From Planctomycetaceae bacterium (lineage in GTDB: Bacteria; Planctomycetota; PLA2): a DNA stretch of 56,394 bases. The DNA lies in assembly GCA_011525755.1 (NCBI GenBank), contig WYBS01000066.1, positions 1 to 56,394 of the forward strand, written 5' to 3'. Position numbers and translations under genes: made by a program. Of this stretch, positions 903-53,277 are shown piece by piece. Within the stretch, counting starts at the first letter, position 1. Every line of letters starts with the position of its first letter. The notes under the pieces are model-generated. The model was not told where the DNA came from, did not search any database, and worked only from the letters and a program-made list of their open reading frames with translations.

Positions 903-976
903 GACTCGGGGGTGGCAGGATTCTAAACGCGGCCGCCCGGACTCCCGCATGGTGAAGTGAGGGGGCTCCGGGGGCC

Positions 977-3796
977 GTGCGGCACGTCATTCGCTGGGAT
1001 CGTTCGCCCGTGCGGCTCCGACTCCTTTTCCTCGTGCTCGCGTCCGCGCTGCCCGCGCTCGGGGAGGAGCCGTCGCGCGCGATCCGTGTCCGCGTGGTGA
1101 CGTTCGGCGGCGCGCCGGTAGCAGGCGCGCGCCTCGAGGTACGGCGGACCGTCACGGACCCCTACGACCCGATGTGGCCCGGGGCCGGGGCGCCGACCAC
1201 CGAGGCATGGTGGCGCGGGACCCCTGCCGGAGCCGACGACACGCTCGTTGCTGCGGCGGCGACGGACGACCAGGGCTGGGCGCGGATCGACGGCCTTCTG
1301 GACGGCGCGTTCGACGTGACGGCGCACGCGCCCGGGCTCGCCGTCCGCGGCGCCCAGGTACTCTCGCCGCCGGTCCGCGGCGCGCCCGCCCCGACGATCC
1401 TGCTCGACGCGGGCCACACGCTCCGTGGACGCGTGGTCTCCGAGGCCGGAGCGGCCATCGCCGGCGCGCTCGTCTTCGCGGAGTTCTCGTCCGCGGGCAT
1501 GGCACGCTGGTCCGACAGCGAGCGACCGCTCGTCGCACGCGCCGACGACAGGGGGGAGTTCCGGATCGACGGCGTCCCGGCGGGATCGGCGGTCCTTCAC
1601 GCCTGCCCGCCGGGCACGTGGTTCGCCCGAGACCATCTCGTCGACGCGCCGCGCGACGTGCCGGTGGAGATCGTGCTCTCGCTCCACGGCGTCGAGGCCG
1701 TCGTCAGGGACCTGCGTACGGGCGTCCCGGTCCCGGGCGCCAGCGTGTCGTTCTCGACGTACGGCTTCCACATGTCCAACATGCTTGTGCACGCAGTCAC
1801 GGGCGAGTCGGGGCGCTTCAGCCTCGCCGTTCCGGAGCGCTGGCTCGGTGCGGGCCAGATCGTGGCGCCCGGATACCTGCTTGGGCTTCGCCTCGGCGAG
1901 TCGATGGAGAACCCGCCGGACCTCGAGCGCCTCGCCGGACGGACGCTCGAGATCCGCGCGGTGCCGGGCGCTCGCGTCCGCGGCGTCGTGCGCGATCCCT
2001 CGGGGCCCGTCGCCTCCGCGATCGTGACCGCAACCTGGCTAGCGGGATTCGAGACGCCTTGCGTTTGGGAGCGGAGCGGGCCCGACGGCACCTTCGAGCT
2101 TTGGGCCTGGCCCGGCCTCCTGCACGTCGCCGCGCGGCCGCCGGGCGCGCCCGCGGAGGAGGACCAGGAACTCGATGTCCTGCTCGCGACCGGCAAGGCG
2201 GGCGAACGCGGGCTCGTCGATGTTCCCGGCGAGGGGCGCGACGGCATCGTCCTGTCGCTGCCCGCGCGGCCGCGCGGTGGCCGGATCACCGGGCGCGTCG
2301 TCACCACCGCCGGGGTGCCCGTGCGCGCGTGGCCCGGCATCGCGGGGGACAAGCGTCGCCGTGGCGCCGCGACCGGGATGGACGGCGCGTTCGATCTCGA
2401 GGGCGTCCCCGCGGGCGAGGCGAGGGTCGCGGTTCACGTCCAGGGCATCGGCGAGGTGAAGAGCGAACCCCTCCGGATCGAGGATGGCGGGACCACCCAC
2501 GTCGATCTGGTCGTCCCCGGCGAGCCGCTGGGGCGTGTGGAGGGGCGCGTGGTCGGCCGAGCGGGTCCCGCCTACGTCGTCGGGACGTTCGGGCGCCGCT
2601 TCCCGGTCGCTTCCGACGGGAGTTTCGCGTTCGACACGGAAGTGCTCGCCGGCGAGGTCTCGATCGATGTCGTCGGGCCCGACGGGTTGGAGGGCTCCGC
2701 GAAGGCGAAGTGCGCGAAGGGCGGGCGCGTGAACGTCGGCGAGATCCGGCTCGAGGAGCCCCGCTTCGCCGACTTCCGCGTGGTCGCCGAGGGCGGAGCG
2801 CCCGTCCCCGGCGCCACGGCATCGATCTACATCCCGCCGGATGCGATCTACTGCGGTGCTTTCGAGCTGCCGACCGACCTCGGCGTGCCTGCGGATCGCG
2901 AAGGCCGGATCCGGATTCGGTTACCGCGCGCCGAGCACTTCGACCTGAGGATCCGCGCCCCCGGCTTGTCGGGGCTCGACCTCTCGCATGGATTCGCACG
3001 CGACGTGGTCGTGCTGAAGCCGCTCGGGGCGATGGCGGGCCGCGTGCGCCTCGCCGACGGGACGCCGGCGGCGGGCTGCCGCATCGAGGCGTCCACGCGG
3101 TTCAAGGACGATGTCCCGTCCTACGAGCGCGAGGCGGTGGCGGACGCCAACGGGCGGTTCCGGATCGACGGCCTCGTCTCGGCCGGGCACGACGTCTTCA
3201 TCGAGTCGGGCGCGTCGGGGCCCTCGATCGCCCGGCTGAGAACCGAGGTGGTCGCGCCGGACGAGGCGCTCGACCTCGTCGTCGAGCGCGCGTCCGTCAT
3301 CGAGGGGCGCGTCGTGGACGCGCGCGAACGACCGGTAGCCGACATCGAGGTCACCGCGAGCCCGTGCCAGGACGGCCTCCCGGAGTTGGAGACGCGCACC
3401 GGCGCGGACGGCGGGTTCCGGCTCGCCGGCGCCGTCGCGGGCAAGTACGACCTGCGGGTGAGCCGCGACGGCCTGTGGCCGGACGGCAAGAGACGAGGCG
3501 TGGCCGCGGGCACGAGGGATCTCGTGCTGCGCGCCGAGATCGGCTACCGGATCACCGGGCGCCTCGTCGACGGCGACGGCAGCCCGCGGGCGGGCTGGGT
3601 CGTGGAGGCCGAGCGGAACGACCGGGGCGGGTGTCGCGACCACCGCGCCCGCACCGACCGGCTGGGCCGGTTCGTCCTCGAAGAGATGGAGGGAGGCCTG
3701 TGGAACCTGAAGGTCGGCAGGTGGGGCCATCTTGATCCCGAGTCCGGCGGGAGGGTCCGCGCCGGGTCCGAGGAGGTCGTGCTCGTCCTCCGGTGA
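977..3796 (+). CDS. large secreted protein built from about 9-10 tandem carboxypeptidase-regulatory-like (prealbumin/Ig-like) domains
   Basis: 939-aa ORF with a GTG start and an N-terminal hydrophobic segment (LRLLFLVLASALPALG). Recurrent ~90-aa units with G-R-V-V...G-x-P-x-A-G-A motifs and 'DGRFRIDGL'-type strands. Confidence 0.7.
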   Translation: MRHVIRWDRSPVRLRLLFLVLASALPALGEEPSRAIRVRVVTFGGAPVAGARLEVRRTVTDPYDPMWPGAGAPTTEAWWRGTPAGADDTLVAAAATDDQGWARIDGLLDGAFDVTAHAPGLAVRGAQVLSPPVRGAPAPTILLDAGHTLRGRVVSEAGAAIAGALVFAEFSSAGMARWSDSERPLVARADDRGEFRIDGVPAGSAVLHACPPGTWFARDHLVDAPRDVPVEIVLSLHGVEAVVRDLRTGVPVPGASVSFSTYGFHMSNMLVHAVTGESGRFSLAVPERWLGAGQIVAPGYLLGLRLGESMENPPDLERLAGRTLEIRAVPGARVRGVVRDPSGPVASAIVTATWLAGFETPCVWERSGPDGTFELWAWPGLLHVAARPPGAPAEEDQELDVLLATGKAGERGLVDVPGEGRDGIVLSLPARPRGGRITGRVVTTAGVPVRAWPGIAGDKRRRGAATGMDGAFDLEGVPAGEARVAVHVQGIGEVKSEPLRIEDGGTTHVDLVVPGEPLGRVEGRVVGRAGPAYVVGTFGRRFPVASDGSFAFDTEVLAGEVSIDVVGPDGLEGSAKAKCAKGGRVNVGEIRLEEPRFADFRVVAEGGAPVPGATASIYIPPDAIYCGAFELPTDLGVPADREGRIRIRLPRAEHFDLRIRAPGLSGLDLSHGFARDVVVLKPLGAMAGRVRLADGTPAAGCRIEASTRFKDDVPSYEREAVADANGRFRIDGLVSAGHDVFIESGASGPSIARLRTEVVAPDEALDLVVERASVIEGRVVDARERPVADIEVTASPCQDGLPELETRTGADGGFRLAGAVAGKYDLRVSRDGLWPDGKRRGVAAGTRDLVLRAEIGYRITGRLVDGDGSPRAGWVVEAERNDRGGCRDHRARTDRLGRFVLEEMEGGLWNLKVGRWGHLDPESGGRVRAGSEEVVLVLR

Positions 3797-3829
3797 CCTG
3801 TTGTACGGAGCCTGACACCATTCAATGAA
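3797..3829. repeat. 33-bp palindromic repeat, copy C, immediately after the stop of CDS 977-3796
   Basis: Sequence identity to copies A and B. Confidence 0.8.
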
Positions 3830-3871
3830 TAGTCGGTCTTCTGGGGCCGGCACCGGCCCAAGCTCCCCGGG

Positions 3872-3904
3872 TTCATTGAAACGTGTCAGGCTCCGTACAT
3901 TGAA
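3872..3904. repeat. 33-bp palindromic repeat, copy D. It is inverted relative to copy C, and the pair flanks a GC hairpin between convergent genes.
   Basis: The reverse complement matches copies A-C: TTCAATGTACGGAGCCTGACACGTTTCAATGAA. Confidence 0.8.
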
Positions 3905-3913
3905 ACGCCGTAC

Positions 3914-4723
3914 CTAGAACAGCCACTGCTTCATGCAGTAGACGCTGCCGCCCGACTTCAGGAACTCCCCCGTCTCGACCGGGTGGATCGTGAAACCCGC
4001 CTGCCGCAGCTTCTCCTCGAGCGCCGCGCTCCCGCGCTGGATCACCACGTGCTTCCCGGACGCGAGCGCGTTGCACGCGAAGCCGTCCCGCGCCTCCCGC
4101 TCGTCCGCTTCGATCACCCGCTTGAAGTTCCGGCGGATCAGCGTGTTCCCCGCCCGCGTGAACGCCTTCGGGTAGACGAGCGCCGTCTTCGGGTCGAGCG
4201 GGCAGAGGCACGTGTCGAGGTGGTAGAAGTCCGTCTTCAGTTCGAGCGTCAGCGTCTCGACGCCGAAGACGATCCCGAGGAAGGGGTACACCTCCGCGAC
4301 GGAGCGCTGGCCGTACCCGCCCCAGAGGATCCGCCTCCCCGGGTGCCACACCGCGTCGCCGCCTCCCTCGAAGAGCACCGGGCTCTCGATCACGTCGTAG
4401 CCGTGCTCCGAGAACCACCTGCGGTGCGCCTCGACCTCGCGCTGCCGCGACTCGTGCCGCATCCGCGAGAGGACGGCCACCTTCCTCCCGTGCCGGTTCA
4501 CGCCCGTGAACGACGGGTTCGCGCAAAAGACCATGTCCTCGCAGCCGGGCGTCGGCGGGAGCGTCTCGACCTCGAGCCCGATCCCCCGGAAGGTCTCCGC
4601 GAGCGCGTCCCACTGCTCGCGGGCGCGCGCGCGGTCGACCTTCCCGGCCTGCCCCTTCATGAAGACGTTCTTCACGTCGACCACGTCGAAGTGGTCGGGC
4701 GGGCAGAGGAGGACGCCCTTCAC
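3914..4723 (-). CDS. amidinotransferase-superfamily protein (dimethylarginine dimethylaminohydrolase / arginine deiminase-like)
   Basis: 269 aa. The FYHLDTCLCPL motif and a C-terminal GGSVYCM catalytic-Cys motif are typical of the DDAH/amidinotransferase fold. Confidence 0.75.
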   Translation of the reverse strand: MKGVLLCPPDHFDVVDVKNVFMKGQAGKVDRARAREQWDALAETFRGIGLEVETLPPTPGCEDMVFCANPSFTGVNRHGRKVAVLSRMRHESRQREVEAHRRWFSEHGYDVIESPVLFEGGGDAVWHPGRRILWGGYGQRSVAEVYPFLGIVFGVETLTLELKTDFYHLDTCLCPLDPKTALVYPKAFTRAGNTLIRRNFKRVIEADEREARDGFACNALASGKHVVIQRGSAALEEKLRQAGFTIHPVETGEFLKSGGSVYCMKQWLF

Positions 4724-5739
4724 GGCTGCTCCCCGCCCTCCTCCTCTTCCCCGGGCCCCATCTCCTCCCCCCGCGAGAGCCTCTTGAGCGTCGCCACGCC
4801 GCGCAGGAACTCGGTCTTCGGCATCGCCGGGCAGCCCCAGAGGATGCTGCCGTCCTTCCAGGGGCCGATGACCCCCGTCTGCGCGCCCACGCGGCAGCGG
4901 TCGCCGAGGTGCGCCTGGTTCGAGAGGCCGACCTGCCCGCCGACCTCGCAGTCGTCGCCGATCGTCGCGCCGCCCGCCATCCCCGTCTGGGCCGCGAGGA
5001 ACGACCGCTCGCCGATGACGCAGTTGTGGCCGAGATGGACGAGGTTGTCGAGCGCGCTGAACCTGCCGACGCGCGTCACGTCGTAGCGCGCCCGGTCGAT
5101 CGTCGCACAGGCGCCGACGTGGACGTCGTCGCCGAGGACGACGGTGCCGACGTGGTGGAGCCGCACGGGGCCCTTCGGCCCCGGCGCGTAGCCGAACCCG
5201 GGCCGCGACAGGACCGCGTTCGCGCCGATGCGCACGCGGCTGCCGGCGACGAGGCCCGCGTGGAGCACGGCGCCCGGCTCGACGCGGCAGTCCTCGCCCA
5301 GCTCGACCCCGTTCTCGACGACCACGTGCGCCTTGAGGATCGTCCGCGCGCCGATCCTCGCCTTGCCGACGACCGCGTAGGGGCCCACGTGCACGCCGTC
5401 GCCGAGCGTCGCCTCGGGGTCGATCACCGCGGTCGGGTGGATTCCGGGGGGCTCCGGGGGCGCGACGAGCCCGAGCGCCTCGATGATCCGGTTCAGCGCG
5501 GCGAGCGGGAACGGCGAGAGGATCGCGGGGCGGCCCTCGAGCTTCTCCGAGAGGTCCTTGTGCGCGAGGAAGGCGCCGGCCTTCGATGCGCGCGCGGCCT
5601 CGAGCCAGCGCGCCGACTCGACCGGGGCGATCTCCTCCTTCGTTGCGCTCCCGAGCGATGCGACCCCCGTGATCCGGACGTCGGGCCTTCCCATGAGTTC
5701 GCCTTCCGCGGCCCTGCAGAGTTCCTTGAGCGTCGGCAT
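4720..5739 (-). CDS. lpxD: UDP-3-O-(3-hydroxyacyl)glucosamine N-acyltransferase LpxD
   Basis: Left-handed beta-helix hexapeptide repeats (…GDDVHVGACATIDRA…IGANAVL…) and the LpxD N-terminal region. Start chosen at MPTLKEL. The stop overlaps the downstream gene's start. Confidence 0.8.
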   Translation of the reverse strand: MPTLKELCRAAEGELMGRPDVRITGVASLGSATKEEIAPVESARWLEAARASKAGAFLAHKDLSEKLEGRPAILSPFPLAALNRIIEALGLVAPPEPPGIHPTAVIDPEATLGDGVHVGPYAVVGKARIGARTILKAHVVVENGVELGEDCRVEPGAVLHAGLVAGSRVRIGANAVLSRPGFGYAPGPKGPVRLHHVGTVVLGDDVHVGACATIDRARYDVTRVGRFSALDNLVHLGHNCVIGERSFLAAQTGMAGGATIGDDCEVGGQVGLSNQAHLGDRCRVGAQTGVIGPWKDGSILWGCPAMPKTEFLRGVATLKRLSRGEEMGPGEEEEGGEQP

Positions 5740-5783
5740 GGCATGAGCGTACCCGTAGGGCTTCGCGTGGTACAAGGACGGCG

Positions 5784-7672: not shown

Positions 7673-8413
7673 ATGCGAAAGAGGGCATGGGTAAGCGCCT
7701 TCCTCGTCGCGACTGTCGCGCTCGTGCTCGGCACGGCGGCGCCGGACGCGTCGGCGAAGAAGAACTGCAAGGAGGAGGAGGAGGTCGAGCTCGAGATCGC
7801 GAAGATCTACTGGGAGTACAACTCCTCGGGCAACGATCTCGGCGTCCACGTCTTCCTCGACGGCGAGGACTGGAAGAGCATGAAGATCTATAGCCCCGAC
7901 GGCAAGACGCTCTTCAAGGTCGAGGGCAAACAGGGCTACAAGGAGCTCGGCATGACCGAGCTCTTCTTCGAGGGGGCGGAGCCGAACCTCGACGAGTACC
8001 CGCTCGAGGACCTCCTCGACCTCTTCCCGGAGGGATGCTACGAGTTCGATGGCAAGACGGTCGACGGCGCGGAGATCGAGGGCGAGGCGTACCTTTCGCA
8101 CGCGATCCCCGACGGCCCCGAAGTCTCCACGGACGGCGTGTCCGGCAGCCAGCTCGTGATCGAGTGGGAGCCCGTCGACGACAACCCGGACGGCTTCCCC
8201 GACGAGGCGTTCACGATCGTCGGCTACCAGGTCATCGTCGAGGGCAGCGACGGGATGAAGTTCGACATCAAGCTGCCCGGCGACGCCACGCACGTGACGG
8301 TGCCGCCGGAGTTCGTGGACGCGCTCGAGTCGGGCGAGGAGTACGACTTCGAGGTGCTCGCGATCGCGTCGAACGGCAACCAGTCCATCACGGAAGGCAC
8401 GTTCGAGAAGTAG
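7673..8413 (+). CDS. acidic secreted hypothetical protein
   Basis: Strong Shine-Dalgarno sequence (AAGGAG) 7 nt upstream. Signal peptide MRKRAWVSAFLVATVALVLGTAAPDASA. 246 aa, Asp/Glu-rich. Confidence 0.75.
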   Translation: MRKRAWVSAFLVATVALVLGTAAPDASAKKNCKEEEEVELEIAKIYWEYNSSGNDLGVHVFLDGEDWKSMKIYSPDGKTLFKVEGKQGYKELGMTELFFEGAEPNLDEYPLEDLLDLFPEGCYEFDGKTVDGAEIEGEAYLSHAIPDGPEVSTDGVSGSQLVIEWEPVDDNPDGFPDEAFTIVGYQVIVEGSDGMKFDIKLPGDATHVTVPPEFVDALESGEEYDFEVLAIASNGNQSITEGTFEK

Positions 8414-8423
8414 GGGAAGGAGA

Positions 8424-8458
8424 GGGGGTCCGGGGGCCGCCGGCCCCCGGAGCCCCCC
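8424..8458. terminator. GC-rich inverted repeat downstream of CDS 7673-8413 (GGGGGTCCGGGGGCC/GGCCCCCGGAGCCCCC)
   Basis: Near-perfect inverted repeat starting 11 nt after the stop, followed by a T-containing tract. It is built from two inverted copies of the over-represented G5CTCCG5 motif. Confidence 0.4.
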
Positions 8459-9562: not shown

Positions 9563-10405
9563 ATGGCCCTCCGTCGCGCGATCATGCTCGTCTTCGGCCT
9601 CCTCTCGCTCACCGGCGGGGAGACCCTCTGGTGGATCGACGTCCGCCCGCTCCCGCAATGGCTCGTGGCCGTGCCGGGCGCGATCCTCCTCCTCCACGCG
9701 CTGACCGGCCGCCTCGGCCGCCCGGCCACGGCGACCGCGGTCCTGCTCGCGGCGGTCGCAGCGGCGAACACCCTTCGCTACTACGCGCTCCCCTCCGTGC
9801 CCCCGGTCCCCCTGAGCCTCCCCGTCGCGGGACTGCTCGCGCTCGCGGCGATCCCCGGCCGCCCGAGGCTCACGCTGCCCTTCGCGGCGCTCCTCTTGGC
9901 GCTCTTCCCGCTCGCGCACGTCTACACGTTCGGCCGCACGAGCTACGCGCGCGACGCGGACTGGATCGTCGTGCCCGGCGCGCGGTGCTACGCCGACGGG
10001 ACGCCGTCGCAGGCGCTCCGGGAGCGCGTGAGGACCGCGTGCCGGCTCTGGCGCGAGGGGTACGCGTCGCGGCTCTTCCTCTCAGGGGGTCCGGGGGACG
10101 GCGCGACGCACGAGGTCGAAGCGATGCGCGCGCTCGCGATGGAAGAGGGGGTGCCCGCGGGGGAGATCGCGGTGGACCGGGACGGCGTGAACACGCTCGC
10201 GACGATCCGCCACGCGCCGCCGGGGCGGCTGCTTCTCGTGAGCCACTTCTACCACCTGCCGCGCGCGAAGCTGCTCGCGCGCCGCGAAGGCCGCGAGGCG
10301 TACACGGTGCCCGCCGACGAGGAGCGGAGGATCCGCGGCACGCCGCGGTTCGTCGCCCGCGAGATCGCGGCGTTCTGGTGGTACCTGCTGGCGACGGCGC
10401 GCTGA
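9563..10405 (+). CDS. YdcF/ElyC/SanA family (DUF218) protein
   Basis: N-terminal TM helices followed by a DUF218-like domain (…SRLFLSGGPGDGATHEVEAMRALA…GVNTLATI…). Confidence 0.75.
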   Translation: MALRRAIMLVFGLLSLTGGETLWWIDVRPLPQWLVAVPGAILLLHALTGRLGRPATATAVLLAAVAAANTLRYYALPSVPPVPLSLPVAGLLALAAIPGRPRLTLPFAALLLALFPLAHVYTFGRTSYARDADWIVVPGARCYADGTPSQALRERVRTACRLWREGYASRLFLSGGPGDGATHEVEAMRALAMEEGVPAGEIAVDRDGVNTLATIRHAPPGRLLLVSHFYHLPRAKLLARREGREAYTVPADEERRIRGTPRFVAREIAAFWWYLLATAR

Positions 10406-12509: not shown

Positions 12510-13703
12510 CTACGGTAGCACGGGCCAGCCCGCGGCGCGCGCGGCCGCGAGCCTGGCGCGCACCTCGCCGAGCGCCGCCTCGCGCTCCGCCGCCGCCGCG
12601 TCGATCAGCCCCTCGATCGAGAAGATCACGTCGAGGAAGGAGCCCTCCCTGCCCTCGAGCTCCGCGCGCGCCGTGCGGAGGATCTCCTGCTGCGCGGCGC
12701 GCCGCATCGTCGCCGCCGAGAGCTCGGCCTCCGCCGCCGCCGCCTCGTGGCGCGCCGCCTCCGCGTCGCGGAGCCCGTCGAGGATCGCCCCCTCCATCTC
12801 GAGCCGGGCGGCGTCGCGGGCCGCCTCCGCCGCGCGCGCCTCCTTCGAGGCGCCGAAGGGAAGCGTGATCGCGACCGCGCCGAAGAAGTCGACCGGGTCG
12901 CCGCCGACCGAAGGGCTCACGACCAGCGCCGGGTACTGCTCCGCGACCGCGCGCCGGAACTCCTGCTCGGCGACCTCGTAGGACGCGAGCTGCCGCTGGA
13001 GATCCGCGCGCGTCTTCAAGATCACGCGCCAGTCCGGCGCCGGGAACTCCGGCCACGGCGACCCGAAGGGCGCGATCTCGACCGCCGCGAGCGGCGATGC
13101 GCCGAGCAGCCGGAGGAGCCGGAGCCGGTTGGCCGCCCGCTCCGCCTCGCGCCGCTGCCGCTCCGCGCGGAGGGACTCGGCCGTCGCCCGCATGACGTCC
13201 TCCGCGGACGCCGGCGCGAAGCCCGCGCGCACGTAGGGCGCCGGGTCGAACGCCGCCTCGGGCATCGGCAGCGACGCGAGCACCCGCTCGATCTCGTACG
13301 CCTCCGCGATCTCGCCCGCGATCTCCCTCGCGCGCTCGTGGTGCGCCATCCACGCCTCGCTCCGCCGCGCGCGCGCGAGCGCCTTGTCCGCCCCGCGCCG
13401 GCCCATGCCGAGAAGCGAGAAGACGTCGAGGACGAGGATCAGCTCGGGGTTCTGGTCGCTGTCGATTCCCGCTTCGAGTTCGGGGGGCTCCGGGGGCACG
13501 GAGACGTTGACCGCCGCGGCGCGCTTCCGGAGCGCGAGGAGATCCGGGTTGTGGAGGATCGCCCACTCGACCGCCTGTTCGTACGGTACCGAGCCCTCCG
13601 GAGGTTCGGGCGCCTCGAGCACCGTCGCCTCCATGTCGACCGGCGCCGCCTTGTAGGAGACGCACGCGCCGAGGAGCAGGAGAAGCGGGAGCGTCCGGGT
13701 CAC
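12510..13703 (-). CDS. TolC-like outer membrane efflux protein (outer-membrane factor of the heavy-metal RND system)
   Basis: GTG start with a lipoprotein-type signal (LPLLLLLGACVSY). Coiled-coil Ala/Arg/Glu-rich repeats typical of outer-membrane factor (OMF) proteins. Position downstream of the pump genes. Confidence 0.75.
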   Translation of the reverse strand: MTRTLPLLLLLGACVSYKAAPVDMEATVLEAPEPPEGSVPYEQAVEWAILHNPDLLALRKRAAAVNVSVPPEPPELEAGIDSDQNPELILVLDVFSLLGMGRRGADKALARARRSEAWMAHHERAREIAGEIAEAYEIERVLASLPMPEAAFDPAPYVRAGFAPASAEDVMRATAESLRAERQRREAERAANRLRLLRLLGASPLAAVEIAPFGSPWPEFPAPDWRVILKTRADLQRQLASYEVAEQEFRRAVAEQYPALVVSPSVGGDPVDFFGAVAITLPFGASKEARAAEAARDAARLEMEGAILDGLRDAEAARHEAAAAEAELSAATMRRAAQQEILRTARAELEGREGSFLDVIFSIEGLIDAAAAEREAALGEVRARLAAARAAGWPVLP

Positions 13704-14173
13704 TTGTGGTCGTGCCCCTCGCCCTCGAGCGGCGACTGGTAGTTCTTGTCGCCGATCTTCACCCGGATCCGGCCGTCCCACGGGTCGGCCTTGAGCCCCT
13801 CGTGCGAGCCCTTCCACGCGGAGGCCTTGCCGTCCGCGCCGGGCTCGACCGGCGTCAGCTCGACCGTGGCCGGGCCGCCCGCCGTCATGATGTTCACCGC
13901 CGGCTTCTCGACCGCGACCGGGGTCTTCATGTCCTCGCCGAGCACGTAGACGGTCATGTTGCCTCCGTCGTGGTCGTGGATGATCTCGAGGTGCGCGGCG
14001 CCGCCGCCGAGGTCGAGGATCTCGCCGCCGTGCGGCGCCTCGCCGTGCTCGTGGGCGTGCTCCTCGCCGGGCGGGTGGTCGTGGCCCTCGTGTTCGTCCT
14101 TCGGCGCCGCCGGCTTGTCGCCGCCGCATGCCGCGACGAGCGCGAGGACGAGAGTGCATTCAAGGATTCGCAT
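13700..14173 (-). CDS. His-rich periplasmic lipoprotein, putative metal-binding chaperone of the efflux system
   Basis: Lipobox LVAACGG. N-terminal HEGHDHPPGEEHAHEHGEAPHGGE and C-terminal EGEGHDHK His clusters. Sits between the RND pump and the OMF. Confidence 0.7.
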   Translation of the reverse strand: MRILECTLVLALVAACGGDKPAAPKDEHEGHDHPPGEEHAHEHGEAPHGGEILDLGGGAAHLEIIHDHDGGNMTVYVLGEDMKTPVAVEKPAVNIMTAGGPATVELTPVEPGADGKASAWKGSHEGLKADPWDGRIRVKIGDKNYQSPLEGEGHDHK

Positions 14174-17100
14174 GGGTTCCTCCTTCGGGTCGTTCGTGGG
14201 TCACGGGCGCGATCCCCTCGAAAAGCTCCTCCGCGACGCGGTCGCGCGGCTCGCGGTGAGTGACGTGGGCCTCGGCCGCGCGCCGCCCGAACGCGAGGAA
14301 GAGGCCGGGGGTGACGATGATGTCGAGCAGCGTGCTCGAGATGAGGCCGCCGAGGATCGCGGTCGCGACCGGGTAGAGCAGCTCGCGGCCGGGCCGGTCG
14401 GGCGTGAGCACGATCGGCACGAGCGCGATCCCGGCGCAGAGCGCGGTCATGAGCACGGGGACGAGCCGCTCCTTGCCCGCGCGGAGGACCATCTCCTTGC
14501 CGAAGGGCATCCCCTCCTCGCGCATCACGTGGAGGTAGTGGTCGATCAGCAGGATCGAGTTCCGCGCGGCGATGCCGGCGAGCGCGATCAGGCCGACGAT
14601 CGTCGCGACCGAGACCGACTGTCCCGTCGCCACGATGAAGAGGACCGCGCCGATCCCCGCCATCGGGATCTTCGCCATCACCTGCCAGGCGAGGTTCAGC
14701 GACCGGTAGTGGCCGACGAGGATCAGGAACATCGTGGCGAGCGCGAGCGCGGAGAGGATCGCGAGACGCCTCTGCGCCTCCTGCTGCGCCTCGAACTGCC
14801 CCGAGAGGCGGATCGAGTAGCCGGGCCGCTCCGCGAGCCGCGCGCGGACCGGCACGAGCGCCCGCTCCAGGTCGCCCACGACCTCGCCGAGCGAGCGCCC
14901 CTGGACGTTCAGCATCACGACGATCCGGCGAGACACGTTCTCCCGGTTGATGTTGTTCGGCGTCCACGTGAGCTCCACGTCGGCGACCTCCGAGAGGACG
15001 ATGCGCTCGCCCTCGGCGCCGTGGAGCGTGAGCTCGGCGATCCGGTCGAGGTCCGACCGGTCCTCCGCCCGGAGCCTCAGCACGATCGGGTACGCGATCT
15101 GCCCGACGACCATGCGGGAGAGCTCGCCGCCCTCGAGCGCGAGCTCGACGACCTCCGCGACCCGCTCGACGGTGAGGCCGCGCCGCGCGATGTCCTCGCG
15201 CCGCGGACCCACGTCCACCTGGCGCATCAGCACCTGCGGCTCGACGATCAGGTCCTTCACGCCGTCGATGTCCGCGACCGCCGACTGCACCTCGCCCGCG
15301 ATCTGCCGGAGCGTCTCGAGGTCGGCGCCGAAGACCTTGATCGCGACCTGCGCGTTGACGCCCGAGAGGAGGTGCGAGAGGAGGTGGGCGAGCGGCTGCT
15401 CGACGGACGACGCGACGCCCGGGAACTCCTGCGCGATGCGCTCGCGGATCTCGCCGATGATCTCCTCGCGGCTGCGGCCCGCGCCGGGGTCGAAGGTCAC
15501 GATCACCTCCGACATGTTGACGCCCTCGGCGTGCTCGTCCCCCTCGCCTCGGCCCGTCTTCCGCCCGAGCATCGCGACCCCCCGGACCCCCTTGATCTCC
15601 TGCTCCAGGCGCCGGGCGAACGCGTCGGAGGTTTCGAGCGAGGCCCCGGGCGGCAGGATCAGGTTGACCTGCGCCGTCCCCTCGTTGAACGGCGGGAGGA
15701 ACTGCGAGCCGCGCGTGCCGAGCACGACCAGCGACACGACCGCGACCGCGCCGACCACCGTGGCGATCTGCGCGGGATGGCGGCAGGAGAAGTCCATCAT
15801 GCCGCCGGCCACGGCCTTCGCGTGGCGCACGACCCACGAGTCCCCGCGGCGCTCCGTCGCCTTCGCGCGCGGCAGCAGGTAGAAGCAGAGGACGGGCGTC
15901 ACCGTGAGGGAGACGACGAGCGAGGCGAGGATGCTCACGATGTACGCCACGCCGACCGGCGTGAAGAGGCGCCCCTCCATGCCGGTGAGCGCGAAGAGCG
16001 GGACGTACACGACGACGACGAGCAGCGTGCTCACGAGGATCGGCTTCCGGACCTCGCTCGATGCCCGGTAGACGACGAGGAGGGGGGGCACGGGGGACCC
16101 GCGCTCGCGGTTCTCGCGCAGGCGCCGGAAGACGTTCTCGACGTCCACGATCGCGTCGTCCACGAGCACGCCGATCGCCACCGCGAGCCCGCCGAGCGTC
16201 ATCGTGTTGATCGAGACGTCGAGCAGCTTGAAGACGAGCGCGGTGATCGCGACCGAAAGGGGCAGCGCGGTCAGGGTGATCGCCGTCGTGCGGATGTTCA
16301 GGAGGAAGAGGAAGAGGATCACGACGACGAGGAGCGCGCCGTCGCGGACCGCCTCGACGACGTTGTCGATCGCGCGGTGGATGAAGCCCGCCTGCTCGTA
16401 GAGCGCGGGGAGCAGGAGGACGTCCTCGGGCAGCGAGGGGGCGAGCGCCTCGAGTTCCTTCGCGACGCGGTCCGTCAGGTCGACCGTGTCCGTCGCCGGC
16501 TGCTTGAAGACGGTGAGGATCACGCCGGGCATGGCGTTGACGCCCGCCTCGCCCACGCGGATCGCCGCGGGGCCGAAGCTCACCTGCGCGACGTCGGAGA
16601 TCCGCACGGGCCGCTCGGGGTCCGCGCGGACGAGCGTGCTCTCGAGGTCCGATGGCCCTTTCACGAGCCCCGGCACGGTGATCGTCGGCCCCTCCGGGCC
16701 GACGGCGAGCACGCCGCCCGAGCCGGCGACGTTGGCGCCCTTGATCGCTTCCGCGATCTCCTCGAGGGTGACGTCGTGCACGCGGAGCGCCCGCGCGTCC
16801 GCGATCACCTGGAGCTGGCGCGGGCTCCCGCCGATCGGCACGACCTGCGCCACGCCGGGGAGCGCGAGCAGCCGGGGCTTCACGACCGTGTCGGCGATCG
16901 CGCGCAGCTCGGACGCGTCCGTCCTCCCGCTCCGGCTCTGGATGCCGATCTGGAGGATCTGGCCCATGATGCTCGAGATCGGGGCCATCGCGGGCTCGAT
17001 GCCGGGCGGGAGCTGCGGCTTCGCGGCGGCGAGCTTCTCCTGCACGATCTGGCGGTTGCGGAAGATCTCGGTCTCCCAGCCGAACTCGACGAACACGACC

Positions 17101-17378
17101 GAGAGGTCGAGGCCCGAGGAAGAGCGCACGCGCGAGACGCCCGTGGCGCCGTTCATCGCCTGCTCGATGGGGCGGGTGACGAGGCGCTCGACGTCCTCGG
17201 GGACCATGCCGTGGGCCTCCGTGAGGATCGTCACCGTCGGCCGGTTCAGGTCCGGGAGCACGTCGACCGGCAGCGAGACCGCGACCAGGATCCCGTACCC
17301 GCAGAGCGCGACCGCGAGGAGCAGGATCGTGCCTCGCCCGCGGAGGCTCGAGGCGATGACGCGGTTGAGGTTCAGCAT
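14160..17378 (-). CDS. CusA/CzcA family heavy-metal efflux RND transporter
   Basis: 1072 aa, 12-TM RND architecture. 'AIGVLVDDAIVDVEN' HME-RND signature. Large periplasmic loops. Confidence 0.9.
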   Translation of the reverse strand: MLNLNRVIASSLRGRGTILLLAVALCGYGILVAVSLPVDVLPDLNRPTVTILTEAHGMVPEDVERLVTRPIEQAMNGATGVSRVRSSSGLDLSVVFVEFGWETEIFRNRQIVQEKLAAAKPQLPPGIEPAMAPISSIMGQILQIGIQSRSGRTDASELRAIADTVVKPRLLALPGVAQVVPIGGSPRQLQVIADARALRVHDVTLEEIAEAIKGANVAGSGGVLAVGPEGPTITVPGLVKGPSDLESTLVRADPERPVRISDVAQVSFGPAAIRVGEAGVNAMPGVILTVFKQPATDTVDLTDRVAKELEALAPSLPEDVLLLPALYEQAGFIHRAIDNVVEAVRDGALLVVVILFLFLLNIRTTAITLTALPLSVAITALVFKLLDVSINTMTLGGLAVAIGVLVDDAIVDVENVFRRLRENRERGSPVPPLLVVYRASSEVRKPILVSTLLVVVVYVPLFALTGMEGRLFTPVGVAYIVSILASLVVSLTVTPVLCFYLLPRAKATERRGDSWVVRHAKAVAGGMMDFSCRHPAQIATVVGAVAVVSLVVLGTRGSQFLPPFNEGTAQVNLILPPGASLETSDAFARRLEQEIKGVRGVAMLGRKTGRGEGDEHAEGVNMSEVIVTFDPGAGRSREEIIGEIRERIAQEFPGVASSVEQPLAHLLSHLLSGVNAQVAIKVFGADLETLRQIAGEVQSAVADIDGVKDLIVEPQVLMRQVDVGPRREDIARRGLTVERVAEVVELALEGGELSRMVVGQIAYPIVLRLRAEDRSDLDRIAELTLHGAEGERIVLSEVADVELTWTPNNINRENVSRRIVVMLNVQGRSLGEVVGDLERALVPVRARLAERPGYSIRLSGQFEAQQEAQRRLAILSALALATMFLILVGHYRSLNLAWQVMAKIPMAGIGAVLFIVATGQSVSVATIVGLIALAGIAARNSILLIDHYLHVMREEGMPFGKEMVLRAGKERLVPVLMTALCAGIALVPIVLTPDRPGRELLYPVATAILGGLISSTLLDIIVTPGLFLAFGRRAAEAHVTHREPRDRVAEELFEGIAPVTHERPEGGTHANP

Positions 17379-28749: not shown

Positions 28750-29105
28750 GGGAGCCGCAGCGCGAAGAAGAGGGTCAGCGCGATCGCGGGCGCCATCAGC
28801 GCGGGCGCCGCCCACGCGCCGCCCGAGAGCAGGGCCGTGAGAAGGCAGTAGAGCGTCGCGTACGCGACCCCGCCGGCCGTGAACCAGAGCGCGGGCCGCG
28901 CCCACGGCCGCTCTCGGCGAAGGCCCAAGGCCGCCGCGAACGACCCGCCGATGATGATCGCCGCGTCCGGCAGCGCGTACGCATGGAGGGTGAATGGGGG
29001 GGCTCCGGGGGCCACGAAGAGCGCGCGGAAGTCCGGCCACGCGAGCACAAGGACCCACCAGAGGATCCCGAGGACCCCCTGCACACACAGCCAGATGACG
29101 GCCAT
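28746..29105 (-). CDS. small integral membrane protein, hypothetical
   Basis: ~120 aa with three or four TM helices (MAVIWLCVQGVLGILWWVLVLAW…). The ATG overlaps the upstream stop. Confidence 0.55.
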   Translation of the reverse strand: MAVIWLCVQGVLGILWWVLVLAWPDFRALFVAPGAPPFTLHAYALPDAAIIIGGSFAAALGLRRERPWARPALWFTAGGVAYATLYCLLTALLSGGAWAAPALMAPAIALTLFFALRLP

Positions 29106-37142: not shown

Positions 37143-37198
37143 TCCTCTCCGCTTCGGCGAGGCCGCCCGCGGCGGGCCGGCCTGCCCCCGGACCCCCT

Positions 37199-38806
37199 CT
37201 ACGTCTTCTTCTGCCTCGGCTCGCCGTCGCCCTTGACCGGCGGCGTCGTTGCCCGCGCGGTCTCCGGGGCCGGCGCCTTCTGGTCGCCCGTCATCTTCCC
37301 GAAGTAGTCGGGCATCTGGACGCCGCCGATGTCGCGCATCATCTGGAGCATCGGGGGCAGCGCGCCCGCGAGCCCCTGCAGGAACCCGGCGGTCGCGGAC
37401 TTGCCGTTCGTGCCGTTGCCCGGGTCCCACACGACGACCTTGTCGAACTTGATGTTGCTGATCGCGCTCGATGCCGTGTCGGCGAGATGGTCGAGGTGCT
37501 CGAGCATCATCATCTGGAAGGCCGCCTGCGCGTCGCCGCACGCCTTCACGATCTCGGCGAAGCCCTGGCCCTTCTTCTGGAGGATCTCGTACTGGCCGCG
37601 CGCCTCCGCCTCGAGCTTCGCGAAGATCGCGGACGCCTCGCCCTGCGCCTCGATGCGGCGCCGCTCGGCCGCCGCCTCGGCGTCGACGATCATCTTCGCC
37701 TTCTGCGACTTCGCGAGGGCGACGAGCTCGGCGTTCTTCTCCGCCTCGATCTTCGCCTCCTGCGCCTTCGCGGCCTCGGTCTGCGCCTCGTACTGCGCCT
37801 TCAGGACCTCCGCCTCGGCCACGCGCCGGCTCGTCTCGCCGCGCTGGTAGGCGACCGCCTGCTCCGTCGCGAGGTCCGCGTTCGTGCGCGCGATCAGCGC
37901 CTGCGCGTCGTTCTCGCCCTTCACCGCCTGGGCGTTCGCCTCGGCCACGCGCACGCGCTTCTCGCGCTCCGCGTCGGCGACCTGGGCGTCGCGCTGGAAG
38001 TGGGCCTTCTGCTCGCCGACCTTCGCCTCCTTCTCGAGGTTGGCGACCTGGATCGTGCGCTCCTTGTCGGCGTCCTTCGTCCCGATGTCGCGCTCCTTCT
38101 GCGCGACCGCGACCTCGATGTCCTTCTCCCGGTTGGCGCCCGCGACGCCGACGGCGCCCTTCTTCTCCTGCTCGGCGACGTCGATCGTCGCCTGCTGGAT
38201 CGCGGTCGCCGCGGCCTTGCGCCCGATCGCCTCGATGTAGCCCGAGTCGTCGGTGATGTCCGTGATGTTGACGTTGATCAGGACGAGGCCGACCTTCCGG
38301 AGCTCGGGCTCGAGCGACTTCTGGATCGAGGAGAGGAACGCCTCGCGGTCGCGGTTGATCTCCTCGATCCGCATCGACGCGATCACCTGGCGCAGCTGGC
38401 CGAAGATGATGTCGCGCGCCTGCGCCATGATGTCGTCGGACGCGAGGTTGAGGAGGCGCACCGCGGCGTTCTGCATGATCGTCGGCTCGGTGCCGATCGC
38501 CACCGTGAACACCGAGGGCACGTTGACGCGGATGTTCTCGAGCGAGAGCGCGCCCTTGAGCGGGATCTCGATCTGGATCGGCTCGAGGTCCAGGTAGGCG
38601 TAGTCCTGCACGACGGGCCAGATGAAGGCCGCGCCGCCATGCACGCACTTCGCCGCCTGCGCCCCCGTCACCTTGCCGTAGACGACGAGGACCTTGTTGG
38701 AGGGGCATCGCCGGTAGCGCTTGATCAGCAGCAGGAGGATGCTGAACGCGAAGACCGCGACGAAGAGGATGAGCAGGACTTCGGGTCCCGGTGCCGCAGC
38801 GAACAT
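37199..38806 (-). CDS. flotillin family protein (SPFH domain, YqiK-like)
   Basis: N-terminal TM. SPFH domain. Long Ala/Glu/Lys/Gln-rich coiled coil (EA repeats). Confidence 0.9.
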   Translation of the reverse strand: MFAAAPGPEVLLILFVAVFAFSILLLLIKRYRRCPSNKVLVVYGKVTGAQAAKCVHGGAAFIWPVVQDYAYLDLEPIQIEIPLKGALSLENIRVNVPSVFTVAIGTEPTIMQNAAVRLLNLASDDIMAQARDIIFGQLRQVIASMRIEEINRDREAFLSSIQKSLEPELRKVGLVLINVNITDITDDSGYIEAIGRKAAATAIQQATIDVAEQEKKGAVGVAGANREKDIEVAVAQKERDIGTKDADKERTIQVANLEKEAKVGEQKAHFQRDAQVADAEREKRVRVAEANAQAVKGENDAQALIARTNADLATEQAVAYQRGETSRRVAEAEVLKAQYEAQTEAAKAQEAKIEAEKNAELVALAKSQKAKMIVDAEAAAERRRIEAQGEASAIFAKLEAEARGQYEILQKKGQGFAEIVKACGDAQAAFQMMMLEHLDHLADTASSAISNIKFDKVVVWDPGNGTNGKSATAGFLQGLAGALPPMLQMMRDIGGVQMPDYFGKMTGDQKAPAPETARATTPPVKGDGEPRQKKT

Positions 38807-40528: not shown

Positions 40529-42004
40529 GTGAAGGCGTGGGTGCTTCTCGGGATCGGCCTCCTCGCCGCCTGCGGCGGCGGGGGCGGCGGGGGAGGCGGC
40601 GGTGCCGCCGCCTTCGCGATCGTCTCCACGGTGCCCGTCGACGGCACGATCGGCTTCGCGCCGGGCGCCGGGATTTCCGTCAACTTCTCCGACAACGTGG
40701 ACGTGGCGACCCTCACGCAGGCGACGCTCGTGCTCACGCGCACCGACGGGAGCCAGGTGCCCGCGAACATCGTGACGGCGCCCGCGAACCCGCGCAACGT
40801 GCAGCTTCGGCCCTCCCCCGACCTCCCGCCGGACGCCCGCTTCCACCTCCTCGTGAAGGGATCGATCCGGTCAGTGGCGGGAGTGCCGCTCGGCGCGGAC
40901 AAGGGCGTCTGCTTCATCACGAGCGGGCCCGAGCCGGCCGTCCGCGAGGACCAGGTCCTGGACCTCGGCGACCGGCTCAACGTGCCCCGCTACCTCGCGC
41001 AGGTCGTGCGCGTCGGGTCGCGGACCTTCGTGATCGGCGGCCACAGCAGCGACACCGAGGCGACCGATACCGTGGAGGAGTGGGATCCGGGCACGCGGAG
41101 CTTCAAGCTGCTCTCCACGAAGCTGCTCGGCCCGCGCGCGGAGTTCACGGCGACGGTGCTCTCGGACGGGCGCATCCTCCTCGTCGGCGGCGTCGCGGCG
41201 CCCGGCGGCGCGCCGCTCGCGACGACGGAGACCTTCGATCCGGCGAGCGGGTCCTCCCCCGGGCCCCCTCTCCTCGAAGCGCGAAGGTGGCACGCCGCGA
41301 GCCGTTTCCGCTCCGGGGTGCTCGTGTCAGGGGGCTTCGGGGGCAGCGGCGATCCCCTCGACACGCTTGAGTTCTTCGAGGGCGGGTCGTGGAACGCGCA
41401 TTCCGGGCACCTCGCTCAGCCGTCGGCGCAGCATCTCCAGTTCTCGCGCGGGTTCGACGAGGTGTACGTGGCCGTCGGCAACCTCGCCCAGGTCGCGGCG
41501 CGCGTGGACAGCGTCGCCGTGACGGGGTTCTTCGAGGGGGACGCGCGGTTCCGGTCGCAGGGCACGGTGCTCCACGACGGGCGCGTGATGATCGTCGCGG
41601 GCGACACGCGGAGCGTCGTGATCCACGATTTCGAGGAGGACGTGTCGTACCTCGCGACGAAGCTGCTCTTCGACCGGCGCGGCGCGTACAGCCTGACCAC
41701 GTGGGGATCGAGCGGCCGGCTCTACCTGACGGCGGGCGGGTTCCAGATCTCGGCGGGCGGGCGCGTGATCCGCTCTCTCGAGCTAGTGGAGTACCTCCAG
41801 AACCCGGGCGGCGCGCCGAACGTCGCGATCTACACGGTGACTGCGTCGGAGCTCCCGGTCCCGATGGCGGGCCACGTCGGATTCAACGACCCCCTGGGAG
41901 CGACCGTGCTCGCGGGCGGCATCGAGGACGCCGCCGGCGCCCCGACGCGCCGCGTCGTGATGATCCTCGACAACCGCACGACGCCCCCCGCGACGTGCCA
42001 GTAG
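40529..42004 (+). CDS. Kelch-repeat lipoprotein with an N-terminal Ig-like (SbsA-type) domain
   Basis: GTG start with AAGGGA Shine-Dalgarno sequence. Lipobox LLAACGGGG plus a poly-Gly linker. Repeated 'DGRILLVGG / SGVLVSGGFGG / HDGRVMIVAG' Kelch blades. Confidence 0.7.
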   Translation: MKAWVLLGIGLLAACGGGGGGGGGGAAAFAIVSTVPVDGTIGFAPGAGISVNFSDNVDVATLTQATLVLTRTDGSQVPANIVTAPANPRNVQLRPSPDLPPDARFHLLVKGSIRSVAGVPLGADKGVCFITSGPEPAVREDQVLDLGDRLNVPRYLAQVVRVGSRTFVIGGHSSDTEATDTVEEWDPGTRSFKLLSTKLLGPRAEFTATVLSDGRILLVGGVAAPGGAPLATTETFDPASGSSPGPPLLEARRWHAASRFRSGVLVSGGFGGSGDPLDTLEFFEGGSWNAHSGHLAQPSAQHLQFSRGFDEVYVAVGNLAQVAARVDSVAVTGFFEGDARFRSQGTVLHDGRVMIVAGDTRSVVIHDFEEDVSYLATKLLFDRRGAYSLTTWGSSGRLYLTAGGFQISAGGRVIRSLELVEYLQNPGGAPNVAIYTVTASELPVPMAGHVGFNDPLGATVLAGGIEDAAGAPTRRVVMILDNRTTPPATCQ

Positions 42005-49181: not shown

Positions 49182-49375
49182 CCCCTCCCCGAGACCCCTC
49201 CCCGTGGGCGCCGAGGGCCCGAACAGGTCGACCCCGAATACCCACGCCCACCCCGCCGAAACCAGCGCGACCAGGGAGTAGAACAGGGTAACGGTTGACC
49301 TGCGCGGCAGGCGTAAGTCCTTTCTGGGAAAAGGGTTGCGTCAGTTCGGATGCGGAACTGCTTCCGCGCCTTTCC

Positions 49376-50358: not shown

Positions 50359-50362
<4 letters not shown>
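49376..50362 (-). CDS. FabD-like acyltransferase (malonyl-CoA:ACP transacylase family) with a GNSLG active-site variant
   Basis: 'FFPGRGAY' for FPGQGSQ. 'GNSLGWYTALAAAGALSFADGFRLV' for GHSLGEY…. 'LKQHGPYHTPLV' for the second conserved His region. Confidence 0.75.
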
Positions 50363-52440
<2,078 letters not shown>

Positions 52441-52685
52441 GTCGATGGCCCGCGAAAGCGCCTGGTCCTCGAAGAGCGCGACGGCTTCGCGCGCGAGCAG
52501 GCGGCCGCCCGCGCGCAGTGGCGCGTCGCGCGGCAGGCGCGGCGCGCCCTCCGCGGTCTCGAGATAGGCGTCGAGATTGCGCTCGACGATCGTGATGCGG
52601 TCCGAGATGCCCTAGAGAATCGCCGGGACCGGGGACGGCGCCAAGAAACGCCGAGTCGCCGTGGGAACGGGACTCGCCCGCGGGA

Positions 52686-53144
52686 CTACCGGCGGGACTC
52701 GAGGACGTAGCCGGTGAGGCCGCCGCAACCGACGAGGATGCACACCGCGAGCAGGTGGCCGTGGCCGGAGATCAGGATCGACTCCGGCGCCAGCATCGAC
52801 GAGGGGTCCCAGCCCATCCGGCGCATGAGGAACGCCGCGCCGTACGCGAGCGGGAGGAGCATCACGCCCTTCAGGAGGCCGCCCCCCGTCCGCTGGACGA
52901 AGTAGCCGGCGAACGCAGCGAACAGGAACTCGAGCAGGAACGAGTGCCAGTAGAAGCCGATCCGCGTCACGACGACCGTGATGCCGATCGCCACGAGCAT
53001 CGCGAACACGCCGCTGAGCGCGCCGCGGATCCCCTTGCCCGCCTCGCGCACGCTGCTGCCGCGGAGCGCGGCGCGTTCGCGGGCGATGAATTCCTGGCGG
53101 AGCTTCAGGCCGGGGTCCATGAATCTCTCATCGGCCTCCGGCAT
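52686..53144 (-). CDS. integral membrane protein, hypothetical
   Basis: Start chosen at MPEADERF. Four hydrophobic helices. TAG stop. Confidence 0.5.
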   Translation of the reverse strand: MPEADERFMDPGLKLRQEFIARERAALRGSSVREAGKGIRGALSGVFAMLVAIGITVVVTRIGFYWHSFLLEFLFAAFAGYFVQRTGGGLLKGVMLLPLAYGAAFLMRRMGWDPSSMLAPESILISGHGHLLAVCILVGCGGLTGYVLESRR

Positions 53145-53277
53145 GGGGAAAGAGGGGGGCCGGGGGGGAGGTGCGTCCCGGATCGGGACGACCGGCGCGC
53201 GCAAGGGCTGTTTCCGCGGCCACGGCCGAGGCCGTGGCCCCCGGAGCCCCCCCGGTTCGCCCCCGGACGCGCCGCGC

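Follow-up and report, generated by a model that had tools for sequence, protein, structure and literature searches.

A clade-restricted family of exact 14-nucleotide words in uncultured Planctomycetota and its possible role as a genomic self-tag

INTRODUCTION

Short DNA words that are hyper-abundant and peculiar to one lineage form a known class, which includes the DNA uptake sequences (DUS) of the Neisseriaceae (10-12 nt), the uptake signal sequences (USS) of the Pasteurellaceae, the HIP1 octamer of cyanobacteria and the Chi sites of the RecBCD/AddAB systems. Here, we describe a phenomenon that belongs to this class, found in a new phylum and with a new word framed by runs of five G or C residues (G5/C5): a family of 14-nt words, CCCCCGGAGCCCCC (M1) and CCCCCGGACCCCCT (M2), dispersed over contig WYBS01000066.1 of an uncultured bacterium. 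This stretch, the whole of a 56,394-nt contig from a Planctomycetota metagenome-assembled genome (MAG), is referred to as the window. In the literature searched, the words were found to match only synthetic linker sequences, with no occurrence in a genomic sense.

Of the described systems, DUS are the closest. They often occur as inverted pairs that act as terminators, lie in permissive parts of the core genome, and are highly conserved; many differ too much from their homologues for point mutations to be their source, and their origin has been attributed to recombination with mutation-selection balance or drive (Treangen et al., PMC2397512). DUS dialects follow phylogeny (Frye et al., PMC3630211). 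The family described here resembles DUS and USS in that: (i) a short exact word is, in the DNA sampled, hugely over-represented and equally divided between the strands (7:7); (ii) copies within genes occupy several frames at permissive positions, and an inverted pair follows a gene; (iii) clade dialects are seen (GGAG in the window and its relative L130, GGAA in the lineage DASUGR, and none in the relatives L132, L133, L258, and L007); and (iv) some sites differ from their homologues by more than stepwise point mutation would yield, with a mosaic segment in one relative (L265). It differs from them in its phylum, in having no known competence, in its 14-nt and almost all-G/C word, in a density about 4 times lower, in a possible orientation preference relative to transcription, and in being known from sequence alone.

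Other systems are less similar. HIP1 (GCGATCGC) is a hyper-abundant 8-nt palindrome tied to methyltransferase sites, and its function is debated; like the present family it is abundant in coding and non-coding DNA, created and kept in place, and lineage-restricted, but it is far denser and palindromic, whereas the present word is a non-palindromic 14-mer. Chi sites are also over-represented, species-specific, located in genes, and of similar density, but are 5-8 nt long and co-oriented with replication, while the present family has no strand skew. Rickettsia palindromic elements likewise place repeated DNA within reading frames, but do so as 100-150-nt insertions rather than by substitution without length change. 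The traits of such elements, of repetitive extragenic palindromes, and of miniature inverted-repeat transposable elements were not found for the present word, which is not palindromic, has no conserved flanks, and shows no insertion at 8 of its 9 coding sites.

RESULTS

The exact word occurs far in excess of chance

M1 was detected as nine perfect copies in the window, with four on the plus strand and five on the minus strand (the strand of a copy being that on which CCCCCGGAGCCCCC reads), compared with an expectation of 0.01 copies from 100 dinucleotide shuffles and ~0.00 copies under a third-order Markov model. These are the nine copies named in a preliminary description of this DNA, four of whose ranges were one base off. 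A k-mer survey of the window ranked M1 first at both k = 13 and k = 14, and also identified M2 (AGGGGGTCCGGGGG on the opposite strand), a word overlooked in the preliminary description, with five perfect copies versus ~0.00 expected. M2 departs from M1, without gaps, at 2 positions. At one orthologous intergenic site, M2 is present in the relative L005 and M1 in the relative L006, the two being separated by a single G/C substitution; because of this exchange, the two words were counted as one family, with 14 copies in 56 kb (seven per strand) and the consensus CCCCCGGA[G/A/C]CCCC[C/T]. An additional form, CCCCCGGAACCCCC, was found in a sister MAG.

Perfect M1 copies (nine) outnumber one-mismatch copies (three), though 42 one-mismatch words are possible, and runs of at least five G or C are rarer in the window than expected (176 versus ~443). 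The octamer TCCGGGGG is mostly confined to the family (14 of its 18 occurrences), so the whole 13-14-mer is the unit. Flank sharing outside the 14-mer was not significant (p = 0.24); this covers the shared 20-mer and 21-mer of the preliminary description, which do exist. An identical 22-mer, AGGGGGTCCGGGGGACGGCGCG, at the M2 sites 10084 and 24232, in different reading frames, was marginal (p ~0.06).

Nine of the 14 copies lie within genes and five are intergenic, and the coding copies were compared with a null in which proteins were held fixed and codons were redrawn from the usage of the window itself. Under this null, 0.17 coding M1 copies were expected versus 6 observed, and 0.04 coding M2 copies versus 3 observed; none of 3,000 runs reached either observed count. 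The excess of the exact word over chance is thus confirmed as real. The genome is 72% G+C and codes for much Pro, Gly, and Ala, and an origin of the excess by chance or codon runs is given some plausibility by the C5-N4-C5 stretches that are common in all related lineages. However, all nulls yield at most 0.2 copies versus the 6-9 seen, rare codons are forced by the word, and sister lineages of equal composition do not have it; the likelihood of this explanation is vanishingly small, and both chance and Pro/Gly codon runs were ruled out by the shuffle, Markov, and codon-redraw nulls. GC-rich codon usage, to which the preliminary description would have yielded, does not account for the frequency of the word in the window.

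The even distribution between strands bears on a second explanation, the Chi-like form of which was raised in the preliminary description: that the word is a polar signal for recombination or segregation, of the Chi, KOPS, or AIMS kind, and is read on single-stranded DNA. Its over-representation, in-place origin, lineage specificity, and density (~1 per 4-6 kb, as for Escherichia coli Chi) are shared with such signals. Yet the strands are split 7:7 over the 56-kb contig (given a 75% bias, seven or fewer of 14 has p ~0.04; strands were counted along the contig, as the flat GC skew of the window gives no replication direction), and the conserved unit of 13-14 nt is far longer than known Chi sites of 5-8 nt. 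We therefore consider a signal of this type very unlikely.

Not all similar sequences belong to the family. The degenerate variants listed in the preliminary description were found, but those at ~39455 and ~41260 read CCCCCGGGCCCC and are probably unrelated, while that at 54528-54541 reads CCCCCGGGGCCCCC. Motif-less relatives likewise carry CCCCCGGGCCCC, which encodes PPGP in them, and the GGGGGCCCGGGGG variants were rejected as family members, being a conserved PPGP-coding sequence found in motif-less lineages as well. The one-mismatch variant CCCCCGAAGCCCCC, with a GAAG spacer, lies at 50757-50770 (plus strand) and 41330-41343 (minus strand) and is conserved in L254; its membership is uncertain. 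It was also observed at three sites in L257 and at one in L255 (the orthologue of window 54528), and may be a family member.

The word is restricted to one narrow clade

Syntenic loci from relatives were compared across a range of divergence. The numbers of M1, GGAA-variant, and M2 copies, respectively, were 4, 1, and 2 in L130 (19.4 kb); 3, 4, and 2 in DASUGR contig 194 (29.5 kb); 1, 0, and 1 in L255 (13.3 kb); 2, 0, and 0 in L006 (10.2 kb); 1, 0, and 0 in L254 (13.5 kb), L256 (16.8 kb), and L056 (1.2 kb); 0, 0, and 1 in L257 (20.5 kb); and 3, 0, and 1 in L265 (2.6 kb). The family density is ~1-3 per 10 kb in the window, L130, both DASUGR contigs, L006/L254, L056, and L265, although the 2.6 kb of L265 hold four copies. 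None of the three forms was found in L132, L133, L258, and L007 (~76 kb together). Nucleotide identity to the window is ~80-84% over most of the aligned stretch for L132 and L133 and ~75% for L258, while the LpxD of L007 is 55% identical to that of the window. The spacers GGAG, GGA, or GGAA make up 35-56% in the motif-bearing clade and are varied in the other lineages.

A control set was formed by 239 unrelated loci, each found through a copy of M1 (1.63 Mb from metagenome and viral collections), and a second copy was detected in only 3 of them; two of these multi-copy loci (L062 and L015) are long, unrelated repeats in which the word happens to lie, and L014 holds two overlapping copies. Scans of the collections returned nearly exclusively single chance matches in unrelated contigs, with L056 the one orthologue found. 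These comparisons show that the word is restricted to one narrow clade of uncultured Planctomycetota. The more distant Planctomycetota MAG L007 may have an over-represented word of its own, as GGCCCCCGGGCCC was observed three times in 11 kb (6913, 8948, and 10595) versus ~0.004 expected.

The coding copies were made in place by substitution

At 8 of the 9 coding sites, the word was shown to have been made in place by clustered substitutions, without insertions or deletions; no length difference from orthologues was found for LpxD, the OEP/TolC-like protein, both kinase sites, the small membrane protein, AcrB, DUF218, or the methyltransferase. Most sites differ from their orthologues at 2-3 positions, all within the 4-nt spacer. 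Some of the substitutions are synonymous and lead to codons used at 1-6% (TCA, GGT, GGA, and GCT), and others alter the amino acid (V to E, V/E to G, and P to R). In the window, GGA accounts for 5.7% of Gly codons and is imposed at all three APGAP sites; GCT accounts for 2.0% of Ala codons and is imposed in the methyltransferase; and TCA (1.0% of Ser codons) and GGT (3.3% of Gly codons) are both imposed at the DUF218 site. The peptides that result are PPEPP (two), APGAP (three), and antisense GAPG (one) from M1, and GGPG (one) and GVRG (two) from M2. The preliminary description had reported the six M1 copies within genes with the same M1 peptides and had viewed the word as a highly iterated short element; the use of three frames, both strands, and intergenic DNA, together with the forcing of rare codons, supports such an element acting at the DNA level. 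Its gene assignments (LpxD, OEP/TolC-like, class-I methyltransferase, C45/AAT lipoprotein, and histidine kinase) are backed by Pfam, and the M2 sites add the Pfam families AcrB, DUF218, and flotillin.

Comparison of the individual sites illustrates how the word arose. In lpxD (4720-5775, minus strand), M1 at 5447-5460 (minus strand) encodes PPEPP, which is part of the linker that connects the N-terminal and hexapeptide-repeat domains, and the same-length orthologues read CCCCCGGAACCCCC in L005, CCCCCGCACCCCCC in L006, and CCCCCCGTGCCCCC in L007. Copies in LpxD, the kinase, and the lipoprotein sit in linkers, which are permissive positions. In the OEP/TolC-like gene (12510-14159, minus strand), M1 at 13483-13496 (minus strand) also encodes PPEPP; the orthologues are of equal length, with GGAA in DASUGR, and CCCCCCGTCCCCCC in L132 and CCCCCGGTCCCCCC in L133 (PPVPP), corresponding to a V to E change in the clade of the window. 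The small membrane-protein gene (~28740-29100, minus strand), which lies upstream of a PEMT gene, carries M1 at 28998-29011 (minus strand) as APGAP, and the APGAP frame was found to be the correct one; L132 reads GCCCCCGGGGCCCCC and encodes the same APGAP with GGG, so the GGA of the window is a synonymous replacement. In the DUF218 gene (9563-10405, plus strand), M2 at 10084-10097 (minus strand) encodes SGGPGD using the rare codons TCA, GGT, and GGG in the window; the same SGGPGD is encoded in L005, which differs synonymously at 4 positions of the 14-mer and at a fifth position immediately downstream of it.

The histidine kinase gene (24043-25581, minus strand) has two sites. M1 at 24826-24839 (minus strand) encodes APGAP before the second membrane helix, and all orthologues are of equal length; L132 has GCCCCCGTGGCCCCC and L133 has GCCCCCGAGGCCCCC (compared as GCCCCCGTG/GAGGCCCCC), indicating that V or E gave way to G, encoded by the rare GGA, in the clade of the window. 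M2 at 24232-24245 (plus strand) encodes GEGVRG in the ATP-binding domain. Here, L130 and L131 carry the GGAA variant GGGGGTTCCGGGGG and L265 has the same state as the window, while the motif-less L132 (GGCGTGCAGGTG) and L133 (GGCGTGCCGGCG) have no G5 runs, such that the runs themselves were created in the clade of the window. In the AcrB-family gene (14160-17378, minus strand), M2 at 15579-15592 (plus strand) encodes KGVRG and is common to the window and L130; the site reads GGGGGTTCGGGGG in L132, GGGGGTGCAGGGGG in L133, and GAGGTCCCCGGGG in L131. M1 is antisense in the methyltransferase gene (20132-20878, minus strand), at 20446-20459 (plus strand), where it encodes GAPG with the rare GCT and is common to L130 and L056. 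This gene was observed in the window, L130, and L056 and is absent in L132 (~13650) and L133 (~13625); in DASUGR, it is a ~70-nt remnant (L131 4404-4475) that comprises the start-codon region and ~35 nt around the GGAA motif.

The remaining coding copy, M1 at 23044-23057 (plus strand) in the C45/AAT lipoprotein gene (22977-24059, plus strand), encodes APGAP directly after the signal peptide and is also present in L130 and L265. It is the sole site in an indel (27 nt versus L131), within a poorly alignable N-terminal linker, and as such is the one observation that favors a small mobile insert landing in frame, comparable to the Rickettsia palindromic elements. As the 8 other coding sites are equal in length to their orthologues and no flank is conserved beyond the 14-mer, a mobile insert is highly implausible, and the hotspot of in-frame 15-18-nt insertions suggested in the preliminary description is refuted in favor of an origin by substitution.

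Lineage variants change together across sites

The spacer differs between lineages in a concerted manner. DASUGR reads GGAA for the GGAG of the window at three independent sites, i.e., LpxD, OEP, and the methyltransferase remnant (CCCCCGGAACCCCC), and this variant imposes the rare GAA codon (7.5% of Glu codons) at LpxD and OEP. The alteration of the same position at three sites points to a force acting on the family as a whole. In addition, L265 and the window share 70-85% identity over most of the kinase gene, where L130 is the nearer relative; in the two stretches of this gene with M1 and M2, the identity of L265 to the window rises to 92-96% and exceeds that of L130. This mosaic (L265 1-2631 versus window 22977-25581) hints at recombination between lineages. 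An extra M1 copy was observed at the kinase N-terminus in L265, where the window reads CCCCCCGGCCCCCC.

Such concerted change may be explained without any function if the spacers were copied between sites by neutral templated homogenization, through microhomology-mediated template switching or very short ectopic conversion on C5/G5 runs, such that they evolve in concert and lineages drift to GGAG, GGAA, or GGA-. The confinement of most differences to the 4-nt spacer, the GGAA variant of DASUGR, and the 22-mer AGGGGGTCCGGGGGACGGCGCG shared by sites in different frames are consistent with this explanation, as is the density of C5-N-C5 pairs (~4-7 per 10 kb for C5-N2-6-C5), which is alike with and without the motif, L258 excepted, such that only the spacers are homogenized. 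Against it, the G5 runs themselves were built at 24232 and 10084, the flanks are otherwise unshared, intergenic copies are kept while their flanks decay, and the changes oppose both the GC3 bias and the protein sequence; moreover, we know of no precedent for genome-wide recombination on 5-nt anchors. Homogenization is accordingly viewed as rather doubtful.

Intergenic copies are conserved islands

Three of the intergenic copies were found to be conserved islands within diverged, indel-rich flanks. M1 at 961-974 (minus strand), between the open reading frame 977-3796 (plus strand) and a divergent minus-strand gene starting near 901, is kept in L005 (12654) and L006 (2114), with flanks that are diverged and rearranged. 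M2 at 37185-37198 (plus strand), 1 nt past the flotillin stop codon (gene 37199-38806, minus strand), is kept 3 nt after the stop codon in L257 (~80% nucleotide identity), the intergenic DNA being otherwise diverged, and is absent in L258. M1 at 53238-53251 (plus strand), 26 nt past the stop codon of gene 53278-54936 (minus strand) and followed by the hairpin CCACGGCCtcGGCCGTGG, is kept after the stop codon in L254 and L256 and has a near-GGAA form in L255, again with indel-rich flanks. The last two copies form the inverted pair that follows gene 7673-8413: M2 at 8423-8436 (minus strand), 10 nt past the stop codon, serves as the 5' arm and M1 at 8444-8457 (plus strand) as the 3' arm of a hairpin (-44.7 kcal/mol, z = -2.6, no U tract). 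The preliminary description had recognized this hairpin (8424-8457), the other arm of which is the second word, AGGGGGTCCGGGGG, and not a degenerate M1. At 8423, 37185, and 53238, the copy thus follows a stop codon by 1-26 nt and has its G-rich form on the sense strand.

These features favor the word being the binding site of an abundant DNA- or RNA-binding protein (e.g., a nucleoid-associated protein or a 3'-end factor), with each site under ordinary selection, the post-stop copies as the core, and the coding copies as a later spread. Besides (i) the three post-stop copies and (ii) the conservation of copies 961, 37185, and 53238 across 2-4 lineages, this explanation could account for (iii) the orientation preferences of M1 and M2 relative to transcription and (iv) the T found at position +6 in 11 of the 14 family copies versus 42-47% after other C5-N4-C5 sites. 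On the other hand, 9 of the 14 copies are intragenic and use three frames; known sites of nucleoid proteins and regulators are degenerate, in contrast to the 3:1 excess of perfect over one-mismatch copies in this family; and no conserved partner structure for the word, no Rfam match at the gathering threshold, and no promoter- or terminator-like consensus in the scanned stretch 1-4200 were found. No tRNA or tmRNA gene was detected in the window. A binding site, which the preliminary description had also suggested, is possible, though on balance unlikely.

The T at +6 (10 of 12 sites, or the 11 of 14 given above) was considered as part of an extended bipartite motif, which was rejected, as it is common in motif-less lineages and only marginally specific to the family. 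Downstream of C5-N4-C5 stretches of any kind, motif-less lineages included, T makes up 40-55% at +5 and +6, versus a 14% background. The excess of T at +4 to +6 may reflect a polypyrimidine context or an older, degenerate bipartite pattern.

Near the 53238 copy, a conserved block at 53122-53200 (minus-strand sense) was observed upstream of gene 52686-53121, comprising a hairpin (GTCCCGATCCGGGAC), a C-rich element (CCCCCCCGGCCCCCCTCTTTCC), GGAGG, and ATG. Orthologous regions are present in L254, L255, and L256, and in DASUGR the C-rich element has turned into M2. The element CCCCCCCGGCCCCCCTCTTTCC may pair with the G-rich M1 copy upstream.

Neighboring repeat and gene presence/absence

A separate ~32-nt repeat, cATTGTACGGAGCCTGACACnATTCAATGAAc (TTCATTGAATnGTGTCAGGCTCCGTACAATG on the opposite strand), was observed in the window at 60-115, 556-611, and 3787-3842 (plus strand) and at 3860-3915 (minus strand). 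Near 82 and 578, the repeat ends in the ATG with which the adjacent gene starts, and one of these two genes begins with a lipoprotein signal peptide; another two copies, near 3809 and 3885, are arranged as an inverted pair. The repeat is kept in L005 and L006, at times directly beside M1, and may serve short or leaderless transcripts as a common promoter or leader. This 32-nt GGAGCCTGACAC element has GGAGCC in common with M1 but was rejected as a family member, being a separate local repeat.

Gene presence and absence were also observed beside M1. The adjoining gene 977-3796, encoding a 939-amino-acid CarboxypepD_reg protein, is absent in L006 (2105-2107) and mostly missing in L005, and a DUF3300 gene is inserted beside M1 in DASUGR and L257 (L255 10650-11484). 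A cassette-type recombination site was considered and rejected, as M1 occurs on one side only of the presence/absence genes and never on both.

DISCUSSION

The exactness of the word, its many dispersed sites in all frames and on both strands, its in-place origin, its lineage variants, and its conservation in non-coding DNA together point to a sequence-specific process. Our tentative interpretation, to which we assign a probability of roughly 0.35, is that the 14-mer family is a lineage-specific genomic self-tag of the uptake-sequence type, kept by sequence-specific drive or selection. By this proposal, near-matches already present in the genome, mostly C5-N4-C5 stretches in Pro-/Gly-rich linkers and C-rich intergenic elements, would be converted in place, with directional base substitution, rather than a mobile insert, yielding the exact word. 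A sequence-specific DNA-recognition process would favor DNA that carries the word; tagged fragments would be preferentially taken up and recombined into the genome, and the tag would accumulate where proteins tolerate it. The reader protein and the uptake-and-recombination mechanism are both inferred.

Several observations weigh against the self-tag. The C-rich form of M1 is on the sense strand in 5 of its 6 coding copies and the G-rich form of M2 in 3 of 3, and this tendency toward opposite orientations relative to transcription is not predicted by a pure double-stranded-DNA tag. The family is unevenly spread, with M1 missing between 29 and 53 kb. DUS or USS are about 4 times denser than the ~1 per 4 kb of the family, and a literature search retrieved no report of natural transformation in Planctomycetota. 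The oldest copies are the post-stop ones, which could indicate an RNA or termination role instead. Finally, the excess was seen in the window and ~100 kb from relatives, and the comparison sample of ~150 kb covers only a few syntenic regions rather than genome-wide behavior.

A more radical possibility is that the clade holds an active sequence-writing process that installs the 14-mer at near-matches genome-wide, overriding codon bias and protein sequence. The template might be a retroelement or an oligonucleotide, or the process might be a repair-linked short-patch conversion, and the lineage variants would then be changes of the template. We regard this as improbable; if true, bacteria would have a novel form of directed genome editing here instead of an uptake tag.

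In either case, the system is young, in that sister lineages at ~80-84% nucleotide identity are without the tag, and a gene-by-gene comparison could find the reader or writer. Unlike the ancient DUS, USS, and HIP1, the birth of this genome-wide word can be traced site by site. We know of no self-recognition word of the uptake type outside the Proteobacteria, and the present one, if it is such a word, would be the first. An uptake-like role would furthermore be evidence, if indirect, that natural transformation with kin discrimination takes place in the Planctomycetota, a phylum in which gene exchange has barely been studied.

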